DNA from: a virus
Lineage: Duplodnaviria > Heunggongvirae > Uroviricota > Caudoviricetes
Length of the DNA: 7,714 bases
Virus record (IMG/VR): IMGVR_UViG_2547132077_000009
Direction: 5' to 3' (one strand)
Made by a program: the position numbers and the translations under genes
The notes under the pieces: model-generated
Databases searched by the model: none
The model's input: only the letters and a program-made list of their open reading frames with translations
What the model was told of the DNA's origin: nothing
Shown here: positions 1 to 7,714 of the stretch, piece by piece
Position numbering within the stretch: the stretch's first letter is position 1
Layout: every line of letters begins with the position of its first letter

Positions 1-408
1 ATGGCAACTCTTAAATCAATAATGGCAATAACCACCTTAATAATTTCACTCAATGCATACGCAAACACGAATGACATTAAAACTCTTCAAAAACAACTGA
101 AACCATGGCAACCACTAGAAATCACAGCAAAAGATAGCTCTCTTACCGTTGTTCTCCCTGGTAAAAAAATCACATCTGAAGCCTATAATCATTTAATTAT
201 GTCCGGTGTATGCACCCCACTTTGGACACATGACGCTCCTTCTTCATTTTTAAAAAATGTAAGTGAAATCAATATAGTTAACCAATATAAGTCTATTGGA
301 TATACCTTTGAAGACCCATTGACCACATGCAATGAAATCGCTCCTTTAATGGAAAAACCTGCACAAACAGTGGTGTTATCCAAAACTCATACCTACACAG
401 GTAAGTAA
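1..408 (+). CDS. Hypothetical small secreted/periplasmic protein (135 aa) with N-terminal signal peptide; AT-rich; function unknown
   Basis: ORF with ATG at position 1 and TAA at 406-408. N-terminus MATLKSIMAITTLIISLNAYA|NTND has a basic residue, a hydrophobic core and an A-x-A cleavage-type motif, with no lipobox Cys. The mature part has two Cys. GC content is clearly lower than in the adjacent phage genes (19/60 GC in the first 60 nt). Convergent with ogr and followed by the hairpin at 425-448. The window starts at the ATG, so upstream signals are not visible. Confidence 0.55.
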   Translation: MATLKSIMAITTLIISLNAYANTNDIKTLQKQLKPWQPLEITAKDSSLTVVLPGKKITSEAYNHLIMSGVCTPLWTHDAPSSFLKNVSEINIVNQYKSIGYTFEDPLTTCNEIAPLMEKPAQTVVLSKTHTYTGK

Positions 409-424
409 ATAGCTCAAATAAGAT

Positions 425-448
425 AAAGCCCCTCGACTGAGGGGCTTT
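425..448. terminator. Bidirectional rho-independent terminator between the convergent ORF 1-408 and ogr
   Basis: Perfect 10-bp inverted repeat AAAGCCCCTC (425-434) / GAGGGGCTTT (439-448) with loop GACT. It is followed by CTGTTTG on the plus strand and by ATCTTATTTG on the minus strand. It lies 17 nt after the plus-ORF stop and 10 nt after the ogr stop. Confidence 0.6.
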
Positions 449-458
449 CTGTTTGTAA

Positions 459-677
459 TTACATCCACATAATTTGCTGCCCTGACGGCAACGGATGCGG
501 CCTCACGGCGTGGACTTCTCCCGGCTTCACGATGTATCGCTGTACCGACTCATAAGTGATGAACGTGGCGCTGCAATTCACGTTCTGACACTGGTGATAA
601 CGCTCTTTTGTCGTGTCAGTGATATAGCGGCTTGTACGCGCATGTGCGGCATGCTGGCATAAAGGACAATGAAACAT
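459..677 (-). CDS. ogr: Ogr, P2-type late-gene transcription activator (72 aa, Cys4 zinc finger)
   Basis: Translation from the ATG at 677-675 gives MFHCPLCQHAAHARTSRYITDTTKERYHQCQNVNCSATFITYESVQRYIVKPGEVHAVRPHPLPSGQQIMWM, which matches P2 Ogr as I recall it, with the C-x2-C-x22-C-x4-C zinc-binding motif. A GAGG Shine-Dalgarno sits about 8 nt upstream of this ATG. The 97-aa version in the ORF track (start at 752) adds an AT-rich leader that begins immediately after the D stop. Confidence 0.85.
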   Translation of the reverse strand: MFHCPLCQHAAHARTSRYITDTTKERYHQCQNVNCSATFITYESVQRYIVKPGEVHAVRPHPLPSGQQIMWM

Positions 678-2415: not shown

Positions 2416-4863
2416 TTAACCGTCATGCATCATGCTGGCACGAGCGCGCGCACGTTTATCCCGCTCGTATTTTTCGAGCGCATCCTGTAACTGGCGGTCA
2501 AGCTGTGTCCCCGGCGCAGTGCCACCCGTCAGGCTGATGTGATATTCGTTTTTACTCTGGTCCACATAAGAGCGGCCAGCCGGTGCCGTGACCGGCTGAT
2601 AAGCCTGATAGCCTGCATAAGAGCTGGTCGCCGGAATATAACCACCGCTGCCATACGTGGCGGCTTGAGTTCTGGCGGCGGTCTGGTCAAGTGTGTCTGA
2701 CTCTTTGTTGATAACACCGAGTTTTTCCAGTACCCAGTCAATACCACTGCGCAGTTTGTTGAACGCATTAAGCGGCAGCATCAGCGCGTCAGCCAGTGCC
2801 TGCCCGAACATGACGCCCGTGTCACGGCAACGGTTCAGGGTGTCCTGGGTGGCTTTGACCGGGGCAATCAGGTTTTTAAACCACTGCCACGCGGCCTGTA
2901 ACTTTTCACCCAGCCAGTCAAACACCGGTTTCAGTGGCGTGAACAGCTCCCCCACCGGCGCAAATGCCGCTTTCAGCCCTTCCACCACACCGCCAAAAAA
3001 TGCGCTGACAGGCTCCCAGTATTTACGGATAAGCAACGCCCCGGCGACAATTGCGGCCACCACGGCCACAACCGGCCAGCTAATAGCCCCGATGGCGGTC
3101 ATAACAGCACTGCCAACCGTCGTGAAGACTGCCCCCATTGCGCCTGCTGCCGCGATGATGGCATTGATGCCGGTGATAACCGGCCAGGCGACAAGACCAA
3201 TGGCACCGATGATGCCAATAAGCGCCAGTGCGCCACCGACAATGAGGCCGATGGTTGACGCCAGTGATTTGTTTTTCTTGATCCAGCCGTCGAGTTTTAA
3301 CACATACTTTGTGGCCGTCTGCGTGAGATTACGCAGCGCGCCTTCCTGCTGGTCAAACAGGTCAGTCCCCACCGCCTCATAAGCGGACTGAAACTCCTTA
3401 AAGTCACCGCCGAGGTTGTCCTGCATGATATTTACCAGCTCGGCAGTCTTCCCGTTTGAGGCTTTAAACGCAGCGGTCAGTTTGTCCAGCTTTCCGGTTG
3501 AGGCGGCGGTCATCAGCACGGCGGCGGCTGAGCTGGCCTCCTCCCCGAAAATAGTTTTCATGTATTCAGCCTGCTGGGCAGTACCGAGCCGGTTTTTCTC
3601 AAAACTGGCCTGCATTTCTTTCAGAATGGTAAATATTGGCCGGGTATTTCCCTTGCTGTCTGAGGTTTTCACGCCAAGCTCTTTGAGTGCATCCCATGCT
3701 TTTCCCGTTGGTGCCTGCAGGCGACTTAACACGGCACGGCTTCCCGTCCCCGCCATTGAGCCTGTAATTTTTGCATCATGCAGCGCCCCGACCATTGCGG
3801 CGGTTTCTTCAATGCTGACACCGGCATTTTTTGCCACAGGTGCGGCATAGGTCAGCGCATCGCTCATGCCGTCAAAATCGGCGGCGGTTTTGTTCATCGT
3901 CATGGAGAGAACATCCCCGATATGAGCGACCTTATCGTTTGAAAGCTGAAAGGCGGATTTCATCCCCATCAGCAGGGCAGCGTTTTCTTCCATCGTGCGA
4001 CGGTTCGCCAGCGCCATATTCAGCGTGACCGGCGTTGCCGCCTGAATGGCATCAACATCCCCACCGGCTTTCGCAATAATAATCTGCGCACCGGCTGCAT
4101 CATCTGCCGAGGCGGCGGTATTGTCGCCGAGCTGGCGCGCCTGTTTGCGTAGTGCAGCCATTTCGGCGGAGTCTTTTGCCACTCCGAGCACGGCCTGCAA
4201 TTCTGAGTTTTTCTGCGCAAACTCATAACCGGGCATCAGCAGCTTAACTCCGGCCATCGTTCCCGCAGCAGCAATCCCCACACCGGCAGCACCCACTGAG
4301 GCCATATTTCCGGCCAGTTCCTTGCCTGCCTGATAACGCTGTTTGACTGCGTTAAGTTTTGCCTGTTGTGCACTGACACGCGCCAGCGCGTCACGCTGTC
4401 GGTTAAGCTGTGCGGTGGTTTCACTGATACGGTTTTTCAGTCCCTGCTCATCATGTGCAAGATTGCGGGTATTAATTCCCACAGCGGCCAGTTCCCGCTG
4501 CTGGCGTTTAACGGAATCCGTCAGGCGGTTATATTTCGCCTGTAAGTCCTCCGCCGCACGCTTTGCGGATTCCAGCACTTTCGCCTGAGCACGGGTCGGA
4601 CGTTCGGTGTTTTTAAACTGTGTGGCAAGGGCTTCGGCCTCCTGCCGAGCCTTTTCAAGTGCATGACCAGTCACGGCGAGCTGTGCACTGGTCTTGCGAA
4701 ATCCCTCAATACGGGATGCCTGACCGTTCAGCTCGCGCAGTGATTTTTGTGTTTCCCGGATATCCCCCGACAGCGACTTGCTCGCTGTGCGGATGGATTT
4801 AAACGGGCGGGATGCCTGGTCAACAGCCCTGAGCAATACCTGTAATTTTACATTGTTACTCAT
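2416..4863 (-). CDS. T: gpT, tail tape measure protein (815 aa)
   Basis: Largest ORF in the operon, same length as P2 gpT. The N-terminal part is Q/R/A-rich with a coiled-coil-like character. An Ala/Gly/Ile-rich hydrophobic block of ~80 residues (residues ~533-612, nt ~3028-3267) is typical of tape measure proteins. The start ATG (4863-4861) overlaps the E+E' stop. Confidence 0.9.
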   Translation of the reverse strand: MSNNVKLQVLLRAVDQASRPFKSIRTASKSLSGDIRETQKSLRELNGQASRIEGFRKTSAQLAVTGHALEKARQEAEALATQFKNTERPTRAQAKVLESAKRAAEDLQAKYNRLTDSVKRQQRELAAVGINTRNLAHDEQGLKNRISETTAQLNRQRDALARVSAQQAKLNAVKQRYQAGKELAGNMASVGAAGVGIAAAGTMAGVKLLMPGYEFAQKNSELQAVLGVAKDSAEMAALRKQARQLGDNTAASADDAAGAQIIIAKAGGDVDAIQAATPVTLNMALANRRTMEENAALLMGMKSAFQLSNDKVAHIGDVLSMTMNKTAADFDGMSDALTYAAPVAKNAGVSIEETAAMVGALHDAKITGSMAGTGSRAVLSRLQAPTGKAWDALKELGVKTSDSKGNTRPIFTILKEMQASFEKNRLGTAQQAEYMKTIFGEEASSAAAVLMTAASTGKLDKLTAAFKASNGKTAELVNIMQDNLGGDFKEFQSAYEAVGTDLFDQQEGALRNLTQTATKYVLKLDGWIKKNKSLASTIGLIVGGALALIGIIGAIGLVAWPVITGINAIIAAAGAMGAVFTTVGSAVMTAIGAISWPVVAVVAAIVAGALLIRKYWEPVSAFFGGVVEGLKAAFAPVGELFTPLKPVFDWLGEKLQAAWQWFKNLIAPVKATQDTLNRCRDTGVMFGQALADALMLPLNAFNKLRSGIDWVLEKLGVINKESDTLDQTAARTQAATYGSGGYIPATSSYAGYQAYQPVTAPAGRSYVDQSKNEYHISLTGGTAPGTQLDRQLQDALEKYERDKRARARASMMHDG

Positions 4864-5283
4864 TCGTGTTTCCGCTTCGCCGGAGCGCCTTTTCGCGCCA
4901 TGTGATGAGTTCGGTCAGGCTCATGGGATACAGTTCTGATGGCGGCCAGTGAAATATCACTGCCACATCCGCCATCAGGTCATCGACCGACAGATTTTTC
5001 GGAAACGTCACTGCACCGAGTTCGGCGACAAAAAACCGACCACCTTACCAGCCAGCGCCACAAGGTCAGGCAGTTCCAGTGCGGCGACTTCCTGCTCGGT
5101 CAGCATCGGTGCCGTCATGCGCGGCAACACCTTAATCAGTGCATCAACTTCGGAGTTTGCGACCGCTGCCAGACTGACACCGCGCAGCGTCCCGGCATTG
5201 GGTTTCATCAGCGTGACCTGTTCGATGACCTGCTCACCACGCTTGACCGGATTGTCCAGGGTAATGACATTTTCTTTGTTCAT
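4856..5283 (-). CDS. E+E': gpE+E', tail assembly chaperone made by programmed -1 frameshift (about 142 aa)
   Basis: The slippery heptamer T TTT TTG (5035-5029, minus strand) lies near the 3' end of E. In the -1 frame an open extension (VAELGAVTFPKNLSVDDLMADVAVIFHWPPSELYPMSLTELITWREKALRRSGNTNE) runs to TAA at 4858-4856, which overlaps the T start as ATGAGTAA. The 142-aa total agrees with P2 E+E' as I recall it. This is analogous to lambda G/GT. Confidence 0.7.
5008..5283 (-). CDS. E: gpE, tail assembly chaperone (91 aa)
   Basis: 91-aa ORF between the tube gene and the tape measure gene, matching the P2 E length. It ends ...GFLSPNSVQ with TGA at 5010-5008. The slippery site sits six codons before the stop. 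Confidence 0.85.
   Translation of the reverse strand: MNKENVITLDNPVKRGEQVIEQVTLMKPNAGTLRGVSLAAVANSEVDALIKVLPRMTAPMLTEQEVAALELPDLVALAGKVVGFLSPNSVQ
5029..5035 (-). other. -1 ribosomal frameshift slippery heptamer TTTTTTG (E to E')
   Basis: Plus strand reads c-aaaaaa at 5029-5035, which is TTTTTTG on the minus strand, phased as T TTT TTG in the E reading frame. This is the heptamer I recall being reported for P2 E/E'. Confidence 0.7.
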
Positions 5284-5339: not shown

Positions 5340-5858
5340 TCACAGGCCGATATTGCGGCGGTGTTGCTCCAGTCGGTCGACGCCGTTCACCTTCTCAATC
5401 ATGTTGATGGTGTCGATTTCGACCAGCTCCTTACCGTCCATCGTCAGCCGGAAATAGGTGCAGACCACGGAGATTTTCGACTCGGTGTCTTCTCCCTGTT
5501 TGCCCTCACCGGTGTCGATTTCTTTCTGACGGCCACGCATGACCACTTCGACGGCCACCGTTTCGCCGGTATCGTCGCGCTGGTAAGAGCCTGCAAAACG
5601 AATCGGTACGGCATCCACGCCGGTTGCGGCGTAAAGCTCCCAGATAACCGAATCCGGGAAGCCCCCAAGCGACCACTCCATTGACAGCGCATCGTCATCA
5701 AGGCCGAGGTCTACCGGTGCGCTTCCGTTCATCCCCGCACCGCGATAGTTTTCGAGTTTACGGGTCAGTTTTGGCAGCGTGACGGACTTTGCAACGCCCT
5801 GATAGCTGTAGCCGTTCAGAAAGACGTTCATTAACTTGAGTTTGCGCGGCATTGCCAT
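5340..5858 (-). CDS. FII: gpFII, tail tube protein (172 aa)
   Basis: 172-aa ORF immediately downstream of the sheath gene, with a 12-nt spacer and Shine-Dalgarno AAGGAG. Same length and position as P2 FII. Confidence 0.9.
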   Translation of the reverse strand: MAMPRKLKLMNVFLNGYSYQGVAKSVTLPKLTRKLENYRGAGMNGSAPVDLGLDDDALSMEWSLGGFPDSVIWELYAATGVDAVPIRFAGSYQRDDTGETVAVEVVMRGRQKEIDTGEGKQGEDTESKISVVCTYFRLTMDGKELVEIDTINMIEKVNGVDRLEQHRRNIGL

Positions 5859-5870
5859 CGGTCAGGCTCC

Positions 5871-7061
5871 TTAATTGCTGTTAACCGAGGTGACCAGATT
5901 TGCCAGGTATTTATCGGTAATACGCTGGCGCAGGGTCAGGTTTTCAAGAGGAGGAACCGGGGTATAGTCGTAGTCGATATACAGTTTTCCGGCCTTGAGG
6001 GTTTCCGCATCGTTGGATTCTTCGCTGAACCAGCAGGTCGCATCCACGATATAGCCGTTTGTTTTCAGCTCACGGAATTTGGCATTGATGCCGTCAACGA
6101 TGTCGCGAATCAGCGTTGCGGTGATGGGCTTGTCCACCGCCCACATGTGCGCCTCAGCCATCGTGTCGGCCAGCACCTGCGCGGTGCGGGTGTAGTTTTC
6201 AAAGAGGAACAGCGGGTCATCGGAGCAGGTACGGTTACCCCAGAAGCGGAAGCCGTCGCGGCGAATCAGCGTTGTGACGCCTGACTCGTTAAGCAGGTCA
6301 GCATCGGTGCCGGACTCCTGCAAATCCCAGAATACAGATGCGCTGATGCCGGTAACACCGTTCACCCCGACATTGGACAGCGTTTTATGCCAGCCCTGCT
6401 CCTGGTCGATTTTAGCGCGCAGACCCAGCGCACGAGCGGTGGCATACGCGGTGGTGGTGGTACTGGTGACCGTATCCCATGCGAGGAAATCCGGCCAGAT
6501 GACCATCAGCTCACGCTGGCTGAAATTCTGGCGGTAGGCTTTCACCTCAGAAATGGTTTTACAGCCCCATGCGCTGATATACCCGAAAGCGCGCAGCTTC
6601 TGACAGACTGATGCCATTGCAACAGCCACCTCTTTGGTGTCCAGTCCCGGCACACCGAGAATACGCGGTTTAACACCGGTTACCGACTCCGCCGCCAGCA
6701 GGGCTTTTAGTCCGGTGTACTGACCGTTTTCGTCGGTGGTGCCGATGATATTGGAAACGGTCTGCGCGAGTTTCGTTTCCTCGTCATCACCGGTGCCGTC
6801 TTCCACGCGCACGACAACGGTGACCGGTTTTGACTGGTCAGCGATGGCCTGCAACGATGCCGCCAGCGTGCCTTTTTTACCGGCCTTTGCAATTGCGCTC
6901 TGCACATTGGTAATCAGCACAGGTTTATTGAGGGGGAAGGTTTCCGCATCCGCATCGCTGGCCGTGCAGACCATGCCGACAATGGCAGTGGATACGGTGG
7001 AAATGACGCGGGTGCCGTCGTTAATCTCCAGCACCTGCACGCCGTGATGATAGTCACTCAT
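5871..7061 (-). CDS. FI: gpFI, contractile tail sheath protein (396 aa)
   Basis: 396-aa ORF, first gene of the FI-FII-E-T-U-D block, same length as P2 FI. Shine-Dalgarno GGAG about 8 nt upstream of the ATG (7061-7059). Confidence 0.9.
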   Translation of the reverse strand: MSDYHHGVQVLEINDGTRVISTVSTAIVGMVCTASDADAETFPLNKPVLITNVQSAIAKAGKKGTLAASLQAIADQSKPVTVVVRVEDGTGDDEETKLAQTVSNIIGTTDENGQYTGLKALLAAESVTGVKPRILGVPGLDTKEVAVAMASVCQKLRAFGYISAWGCKTISEVKAYRQNFSQRELMVIWPDFLAWDTVTSTTTTAYATARALGLRAKIDQEQGWHKTLSNVGVNGVTGISASVFWDLQESGTDADLLNESGVTTLIRRDGFRFWGNRTCSDDPLFLFENYTRTAQVLADTMAEAHMWAVDKPITATLIRDIVDGINAKFRELKTNGYIVDATCWFSEESNDAETLKAGKLYIDYDYTPVPPLENLTLRQRITDKYLANLVTSVNSN

Positions 7062-7120
7062 CCGTTTAACTCCGTGGTTAATGGGTGAGTGATATTTTCA
7101 GTTGTGCCGGAGATGTCAGG

Positions 7121-7714
7121 CTATTTGTCCCGGTTGGCTAAGGGATGACACAATTTATTCTTTGTCGCTGATGAGGGAAATTTTTTATAGAGCGTGGACA
7201 GACCAATATCAAAAATCAGTGCCACGCGTTGACGTGACTCCCCTGCAGCCAGCAAACGCCCGGCCTGCTCCCACTCACTCGTGGTGAGTTTAGGACGTCT
7301 GCCACCAATACGACCTTTGGCTCTGGCCGCTTCCAGCCCGGCCCGAGTCCGCTCGACAATAAGTTCTCGTTCCATTTCAGCCAGGGCACCCATCACATGA
7401 AAGAAAAAACGCCCCATCGGCGTGCTGGTATCAATAGCATCTGTCAGGCTGCGAAAATTAACGCCGCGTTCGCGCAGTTCCTCAACCAGAATGACCAGAT
7501 GCCGCATACTACGCCCCAGCCTGTCCAGCTTCCAGACCACCAGAGTGTCACCTGCTGATAATGTTCTGAGCAGTTTTTTCAGTCCCGGTCGGTCGGACTT
7601 CGTGCCGCTGATTTTATCCTCAAAAATCAGCTCACATCCTGCACACTCCAGCGCATTACGCTGCAATTCCGTATTCTGGTCATTTGTTGACACGCGGACA
7701 TAGCCAATAAGCAT
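7121..7714 (-). CDS. Site-specific DNA invertase, serine recombinase of the Hin/Gin/Cin/Pin family (197 aa)
   Basis: N-terminus MLIGYVRVSTNDQNTELQRNALECAGCELIFEDKISG... is the canonical invertase catalytic domain (nucleophile Ser9 in the YVRVSTNDQ motif; GDTLVVWKLDRLGRS motif). The C-terminal helix-turn-helix ends ...STLYKKFPSS, like Hin (...STLYRYFPASS). The start codon lies at the window edge (7714-7712), so its promoter and crossover sites are outside the window. Confidence 0.9.
   Translation of the reverse strand: MLIGYVRVSTNDQNTELQRNALECAGCELIFEDKISGTKSDRPGLKKLLRTLSAGDTLVVWKLDRLGRSMRHLVILVEELRERGVNFRSLTDAIDTSTPMGRFFFHVMGALAEMERELIVERTRAGLEAARAKGRIGGRRPKLTTSEWEQAGRLLAAGESRQRVALIFDIGLSTLYKKFPSSATKNKLCHPLANRDK

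Follow-up and report, generated by a model that had tools for sequence, protein, structure and literature searches.

The invertase gene and its place in the late operon

The window, by which we mean the whole 7,714-nt stretch of DNA that was analysed, comes from a P2-like prophage and holds its right-hand late region, and everything from ogr to a DNA invertase gene lies on the minus strand (Table 1). The closest complete genome is that of E. coli 382634_2f (CP039403), with 3 mismatches to the window over its 7714 nt (99.96% identity). Coordinates in the CP039403 locus, called L003 here, are converted to window coordinates by subtracting 2101. The late tail operon has the order FI-FII-E/E'-T-U-D-ogr, with a conserved pF start and Ogr site. 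The overlap between E and E' is the known P2 arrangement for gpE and gpE+E', a -1 frameshift that is annotated in P2, and is ordinary. An Rfam scan of the window gave no matches.

Table 1. Features of the window and of the adjoining part of the CP039403 locus. Positions are those of the window unless marked L003.
Feature	Position	Strand	Basis or remark
ogr	inside 459-752	minus	ORF; Pfam Ogr/Delta
D	759-1922	minus	ORF
U	1922-2401	minus	ORF
T	2416-4863	minus	ORF
E' extension	4856-5011	minus	ORF
E	5008-5283	minus	ORF
FII (tube)	5340-5858	minus	ORF; Pfam tube family
FI, tail sheath gene	5871-7061	minus	Pfam Phage_sheath_1, Phage_sheath_1C, Gp18_domIII_N
pF transcription start, FI-FII-E-T-U-D operon	7085-7087	minus	P2 annotation transferred via near-identical alignment
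Ogr/activator binding site of late promoter pF, 29 bp	7130-7158	minus	mapped from P2 annotation 4831-4859 (locus L009)
DNA invertase gene (Gin/Pin/Cin/Fin family small serine recombinase), 197 aa	7121-7714	minus	ORF, Pfam, homology
Predicted recombinational enhancer (sis)	7625-7696	minus	CDS nt 19-90; homology to P1 cin enhancer
Proposed Fis site II, sense GTGCAGGATGTGAGC	7630-7644	minus	CDS nt 71-85; centre 48 bp from site I
Proposed Fis site I, sense TGTCAACAAATGACC	7678-7692	minus	CDS nt 23-37; codon fixation
Proximal 26-bp crossover site	L003 9871-9896 (56-81 nt past window end)		inverted repeat in CP039403
Distal 26-bp crossover site	L003 11734-11759 (1919-1944 nt past window end)		inverted repeat in CP039403

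The invertase gene runs from an ATG at 7714-7712 to a TAG at 7123-7121 on the minus strand, and FI follows 59 bp downstream on the same strand. Between G and FI, the P2 record (AF063097) shows the V operon terminator, fun(Z) on the opposite strand and the features of the pF promoter, and it has no annotation of an invertase in this stretch. The original prediction had placed a complete Hin/Pin-type invertase with an intact catalytic serine directly upstream of the sheath gene, in the slot that P2 uses for Z/fun, and both the gene and its position are as it described. Pfam assigned residues 3-135 of the protein to Resolvase (E 2.8e-52) and residues 138-181 to HTH_7 (E 9.4e-13). This is the architecture of the small serine recombinases, in which an N-terminal catalytic domain is followed by a helix-turn-helix at the C-terminus, and the 197 aa fall within the length of the family (~185-200 aa). 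The active-site residues Ser9, Arg7, Asp64, Arg65 and Arg68 are all found.

The relationship to characterised invertases is close. The protein matches phrog_125 (DNA invertase; E 1e-100) and aligns without gaps, over residues 1-182, to the Mu Gin structures 3UJ3 and 4M6F (E 3e-94). Identity over the aligned length is highest to e14 Pin, the closest characterised invertase (87%), followed by Fels-2 Fin (85%) and by Mu Gin and P1 Cin (80% each). The numbering of Hin presumably runs one residue ahead of that of the window protein, judging from the Hin N-terminus. Six Hin residues, K47, K/R48 and K/R51 in helix B and Q151, R154 and L155 in helix 1 of the DNA-binding domain, are reported to be conserved only in invertases that depend on Fis and an enhancer (PMC3798978). 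All six are kept here, as K46, K47, R50, Q150, R153 and L154, and the alignment with Gin shows the same Fis/enhancer-contact motifs. We conclude that this gene is an ordinary, intact Gin/Pin-type DNA invertase of a P2-like E. coli prophage. Many bacteria that are only distantly related (Burkholderiales, Pseudomonas, Desulfovibrio-type and MAGs) have a nearly uniform homologue with ~64% identity to the invertase, in many cases on a short contig, which suggests that a relative borne on plasmids or transposons, with no link to tail-fibre genes, moves widely.

The 3' end of the invertase gene meets the late promoter of the operon. When the window from 5800 to 7714 (3' end of FII, FI and invertase) was used as a query, P2 matched its first 1342 nt, window 5800-7141, at ~98% nucleotide identity. 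The pF activator site has the form TTGTG...GGGACAA, and 22 of its 29 positions are identical to P2, as counted from the aligned rows. The outer edge of this site is exactly where homology to P2 sets in, and thus the junction between the two modules lies at the edge of the promoter. The last 11 codons of the invertase and its stop (7121-7158) overlap the activator site. Beyond residue 182, the protein ends in a C-terminal tail that has no relation to Gin or Pin, which is explained by the reading of the invertase ORF through the activator site. Ogr binding late in infection could hinder transcription of the invertase gene, or the reverse might occur.

At the other end of the window, just beyond ogr, positions 1-408 of the plus strand hold an ORF of 135 aa with an N-terminus like a signal peptide. 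In CP039403, this ORF is at the end of the prophage, next to fieF. It has a full-length match to phrog_3807 (function unknown; E 3e-60), and there was no match in Pfam or among the PADLOC defence models. Of 5426 complete E. coli genomes, only 20 cover window 1-470 to at least 80%, whereas the ogr end is in 711. The ORF looks like a rare cargo gene on the ogr-att side of P2-like phages, and it is placed where a "third hotspot" of these phages is mentioned (bioRxiv 10.1101/2024.10.15.618418).

A predicted recombinational enhancer in the 5' end of the invertase gene

In the record of phage P1, the enhancer of Cin-mediated inversion is annotated at nt 19-90 of cin, and P7 is annotated similarly. 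Over their first 140 nt, the window gene and gin, cin, pin and fin can be aligned without a gap, and the mean column identity is 87%. Because of this ungapped alignment to the annotated P1 enhancer, the homologous stretch in the window is 7625-7696. An enhancer had been expected within roughly 7570-7700, and the homologue of the P1 element falls inside that interval.

The same stretch encodes the conserved catalytic N-terminus, and we therefore tested for constraint beyond that on the protein. Codons were compared among 35 homologues: the window gene, gin, the cin genes of P1 and P7, pin, fin, the pro483 gene and 28 enterobacterial genes. Synonymous divergence (pS) was 0.65 in codons 7-30 versus 0.81 in codons 31-135, a moderate drop, and the eight 24-codon windows with the lowest divergence all start at codons 2-9. 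Part of this reduction at the 5' end could reflect constraints on the initiation of translation.

Codon choice was near-fixed in two blocks. The first comprises codons 9-12, with TCA in 34 of 35 homologues, ACA in 31 of 34, AAT in 31 of 31 and GAC in 27 of 29 (background 16-64%). The second comprises codons 25-27, with GCA in 23 of 24, GGA in 20 of 21 and TGT in 29 of 35 (background 14-33%). When 110 columns were ranked by bias in codon choice, codon 9 came first, codon 26 second, codon 25 third and codon 10 fifth. The codons between the two blocks vary freely, and the window gene has the favoured codon at every position of both. Half of the top 12 biased columns are within codons 7-30 (hypergeometric P ~0.01, a value that is only indicative because the sequences are related).

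We propose that the two blocks mark Fis sites I and II of the enhancer. Their centres are separated by 48 bp, and the two Fis sites of the Hin enhancer have this spacing as well. Site II fits GNNYRNNNNNYRNNC at all six flanking positions. For site I, a register of nt 22-36, with G...C ends, was considered and dropped; nt 23-37 fits Y-4, R-3, Y+3 and R+4 and also the 48-bp spacing. When the gene was scanned with a degenerate Fis consensus (GNNYRWWWWWYRNNC), both proposed sites scored 10 of 13, about a dozen other positions scored equally and three scored 11. A scan with the consensus cannot locate the enhancer by itself, and we therefore relied on the homology to P1 and on the constraint on codon choice. 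The original prediction had also called for paired Fis sites to be sought within 7570-7700. Two codon-fixed blocks 48 bp apart do lie there, but the Fis consensus does not single them out. Homology and codon constraint together suggest that Fis would bind at the two proposed sites.

An invertible tail-fibre segment beyond the window

The window stops exactly at the start codon of the invertase, and thus the invertase promoter and the crossover sites are outside it. The sites and the segment between them were read from CP039403, which is three bases off the window, rather than from the window's own strain. Past the invertase start in CP039403 there are, in order, a gp53-like fibre C-terminus of 128/129 aa and a tail-fibre assembly gene of 145 aa, both on the plus strand, and then a TfaE-like assembly gene of 200 aa and gpH of 442 aa, both on the minus strand. 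The sole long inverted repeat past the window end is a pair of 26-bp sites. It had been predicted that an invertible fibre segment with inverted crossover sites of ~26 bp would be found just past the window end, and both are present in CP039403, together with alternative C-termini.

The two crossover sites, written in the same sense, are TTCTCCCAAACCAACGTTTAAGAAAA and TTCTCCCAAACCAAGGTATGCGAGAA. Their centres are TT and AA on opposite strands, which is the same central dinucleotide once the strand is allowed for. Our scan found two such sites flanking the e14 P segment, and these hardly differ in sequence from the CP039403 pair. The annotated cixL of P1 also resembles that pair. The proximal site differs at one base from the invertase-proximal site of e14 and is identical to a site in pro483. 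Inside the window, a scan that allowed up to 6 mismatches found no crossover-like sites. We also considered a multi-site shufflon, with at least three sites and more than two variants, as in one EPEC P2-like prophage. This was rejected, as the CP039403 locus has only two sites within 6 mismatches of the consensus.

The segment contains the gp53-like alternative fibre C-terminus with its assembly gene on one side and tfaE with the current C-terminus of gpH on the other. The distal site is inside H, where it codes for LAYLGLGE, and the proximal site codes for the equivalent GLGE of the silent fragment. An in-silico flip of the 1863 bp from one site centre to the other gave an in-frame gpH of 391 aa with the gp53-like C-terminus. 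Between the proximal site and the invertase start codon there is a weak terminator-like hairpin with a run of T's (L003 9835-9854, minus strand, 20-39 nt past the window end), which may be the counterpart of the P2 V-operon terminator. A scan of the CP039403 locus upstream of the invertase found no consensus sigma-70 promoter.

Both orientations of the segment occur in nature. We searched complete E. coli genomes with 600-nt queries across the distal junction and counted a genome if coverage was 80% or more. The junction as it stands in CP039403 was in 280 genomes, and a synthetic flipped junction was in 25, at 93-98% identity. In one of these 25, strain ET350, the order is invertase, collar-type fragment, tfaE, inverted tfa and a gpH of 391 aa, which is the predicted flipped state. 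ET350 is collinear with the flipped locus and not with the locus as it is, and the breakpoints (L003 9880-9896 and 11734-11747) are inside the 26-bp sites. Two prophages, L091 and L100, encode an identical invertase protein, and L100 is an exact flip of L091, ungapped over 9594 nt at 98.5% identity. The segment is also in opposite orientations in pro483 and MET_P1_103_31.

This evidence is between strains, at the level of the population, and the prophages of the isolates that were compared differ by 1.5-3%. At that level the segment inverts: exact, conservative flips separate related prophages, and both junctions are found among E. coli genomes. The lack of inverted repeats, or a single fixed orientation across strains, had been named as grounds for giving up the idea of a switch, and we found both orientations with breakpoints within the 26-bp sites. 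In P2-like prophages of EPEC E2348/69, inversions of ~1.8-2.2 kb have been quantified in culture and confirmed by PCR (PMC4272514).

The layout is widespread. The exact invertase protein is encoded in 605 blocks of the assembly collection, and all 10 of the contexts that we sampled (L091-L100) have the same layout and both crossover sites. Across these contexts, the one protein is accompanied by four or more distinct cassette pairs (fibre C-terminus plus assembly gene), with gpH lengths of 426, 432, 439, 440 and 442 aa and silent fragments of 128, 132, 163 and 177 aa. Since the invertase protein and the sites are constant and the cassettes vary, the cassettes are exchanged between prophages.

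The proposed switch, its alternatives and related systems

We think it very likely that the invertase flips the ~1.9-kb tail-fibre segment just past the window end in the manner of Gin and Cin, so that lysogens would release virions of two receptor specificities. Dimers of the invertase would bind the two 26-bp imperfect-dyad sites, as in Mu Gin/G and P1 Cin/C. One of these sites would be bound inside the tail-fibre gene H, at about codon 271, and the other a little beyond the window end, 56 bp upstream of the invertase ATG. Host Fis would occupy two sites 48 bp apart in the first 90 nt of the invertase gene, and the three DNA segments would come together in an invertasome on supercoiled DNA. 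A 180-degree rotation of subunits would then exchange strands at the central dinucleotide and flip the 1863-bp segment. In one state, the constant N-terminal part of gpH would be joined to a collar-type C-terminus of 171 aa and followed by the TfaE-like assembly protein. In the other, it would be joined to a gp53-like C-terminus of 120 aa and followed by a different assembly protein. A population of lysogens might thus release virions of two receptor specificities. The observations behind this proposal are the intact gene with its family residues, the sites, the alternative exons, the in-frame fusion, the two natural orientations and the constraint on the predicted enhancer at the level of DNA. 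By analogy with the characterised invertases, Fis dependence, a certain rate of switching and a consequence for host range would be expected.

The invertase could instead be a relic, the segment being no longer switched and the orientations in the databases being old, fixed alleles that were spread by recombination between prophages. The junction as it stands is far commoner than the flipped one (280 versus 25 genomes), and the flipped and unflipped prophages that were compared differ by 1.5-3% elsewhere, as might be expected if this were so. However, the imbalance in genomes also depends on the cassette pair in the query. The ORF is unbroken, no catalytic or Fis-contact residue has been lost, and the exact protein recurs across hundreds of assembly blocks (605). 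Matching central dinucleotides are kept at both sites, the breakpoints are inside the sites, and the flip is exactly conservative over the ungapped 9594 nt. In addition, measurements in culture have shown inversion in P2-like prophages (PMC4272514). We therefore regard loss of switching as quite improbable. A role as a resolvase, or as another serine recombinase that acts in cointegrate resolution or excision rather than in inversion, is suggested by the name of the Pfam family, Resolvase, and by the detectable homology to the gamma-delta and Tn3 resolvases (E 1e-27 to 1e-32). The similarity to these is far below that to invertases (Gin, E 3e-94). The sites are inverted and not direct, no res-type accessory sites were seen, and the residues specific to invertases are found along with the predicted enhancer. 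The pattern of identity, the inverted sites and the invertase-specific residues exclude this role, to which we give almost no weight.

Another possibility is that the invertase works mainly in trans for the host, for example on the e14 P segment, with phenotypes like the block to T2 adsorption by PinQ/StfE2, and that fibre switching is secondary. Several points are in keeping with this: the 87% identity to e14 Pin, the proximal site one base away from the invertase-proximal site of e14 and identical to the pro483 site, and the tfaE-like gene in one cassette. Moreover, the prophage invertase PinQ acts on e14 with an anti-phage effect (PMC12529663), and Fels-2 Fin is described as acting on the Salmonella H segment (Kutsukake 2006, as cited in PMC4272514). 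Yet in 10 of 10 contexts the gene is in cis beside its own complete segment, the canonical arrangement for phage host range, and the invertase has no match among the PADLOC defence models. Cross-reaction would supplement switching in cis, not replace it. A main role in trans is highly unlikely in our judgement, although the enzyme could plausibly act on other resident segments in trans as well. We also considered that, in a lysogen, the invertase might act in trans on other Din-type segments (e.g., e14 P), or that a silent fibre fragment which it exposes might be expressed and alter the cell surface, with an adsorption block like that of PinQ/StfE2 as the outcome. We think that such effects are quite unlikely.

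Switching of the tail fibre in cis, our preferred reading, would be nothing unusual for a P2-like phage. Of 5426 complete E. coli genomes, 547 (about a tenth) cover the junction between the invertase and FI to at least 80%. The slot had been expected to be a cargo hotspot, and a 2024 survey of phage hotspots reports that a DNA invertase is often present in the Z/fun hotspot of P2-like phages, with inversion of adjacent genes (bioRxiv 10.1101/2024.10.15.618418). With Fels-2 and the EPEC P2-like inversions, the survey makes the arrangement one that is already known and common, and our finding raises no new mechanistic question. Its value is in annotation and comparison. The gene should be labelled as a tail-fibre DNA invertase (Gin/Pin/Fin family), and not as a generic "recombinase family protein", and the gpH and tfa genes beside it should be seen as the parts of a switch with two states. 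A 1.9-kb inversion between assemblies of such prophages can be biological and not an assembly error. These points are relevant to the prediction of host range in P2-like phages and to the comparative genomics of the Z/fun hotspot.

The nearest relatives of the locus are of essentially the same phage type. Escherichia phages pro483, S164 and "P2" of O157:H43 T22 and Salmonella phage MET_P1_103_31 have 96-98% nucleotide identity across FI and the invertase, and an invertase is annotated in them. They differ in that the fibre cassettes are partly other (87-92% identity, or replaced). Fels-2 of Salmonella Typhimurium LT2 is also P2-like and has the order H, G, inverted G', inverted H', invertase, FI, FII, with two inverted 26-bp sites of the same type. 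Its Fin (STM2702), 85% identical to the window protein, is regarded as an established invertase (Kutsukake 2006, as cited in PMC4272514). However, Fels-2 belongs to the genus Felsduovirus and has other fibre cassettes. The gap between fin and FI is ~100 bp, compared to 59 bp here, and the Fin ORF is 185 aa and is without the C-terminal tail of the window protein.

More distant phage backgrounds carry the same kind of switch. The e14 element of E. coli K-12, with Pin and the P segment, resembles the locus in the 87% identity of the invertase, in its nearly identical sites and in having TfaE-type assembly genes, and its segment is similar in size (1797 bp [PMC12529663] versus 1863 bp here). In contrast, e14 itself is lambdoid and defective, and its fibre gene is a pseudogene, whereas the tail operon here is of P2 type and apparently complete. 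In Mu (Gin/G) and in P1 and P7 (Cin/C), as here, a constant fibre N-terminus is fused to either of two C-termini, each with its matching assembly gene. Their invertases, 80% identical to the window protein, are also encoded outside the segment beside one site and have the enhancer in the 5' end of the gene, where it is predicted here. The phage backbones are different, and the segments are larger (Mu G ~3 kb and P1 C ~4.2 kb, versus 1.9 kb here). In P1, cin is on the other side of the segment, and cixL overlaps the 3' end of cin.
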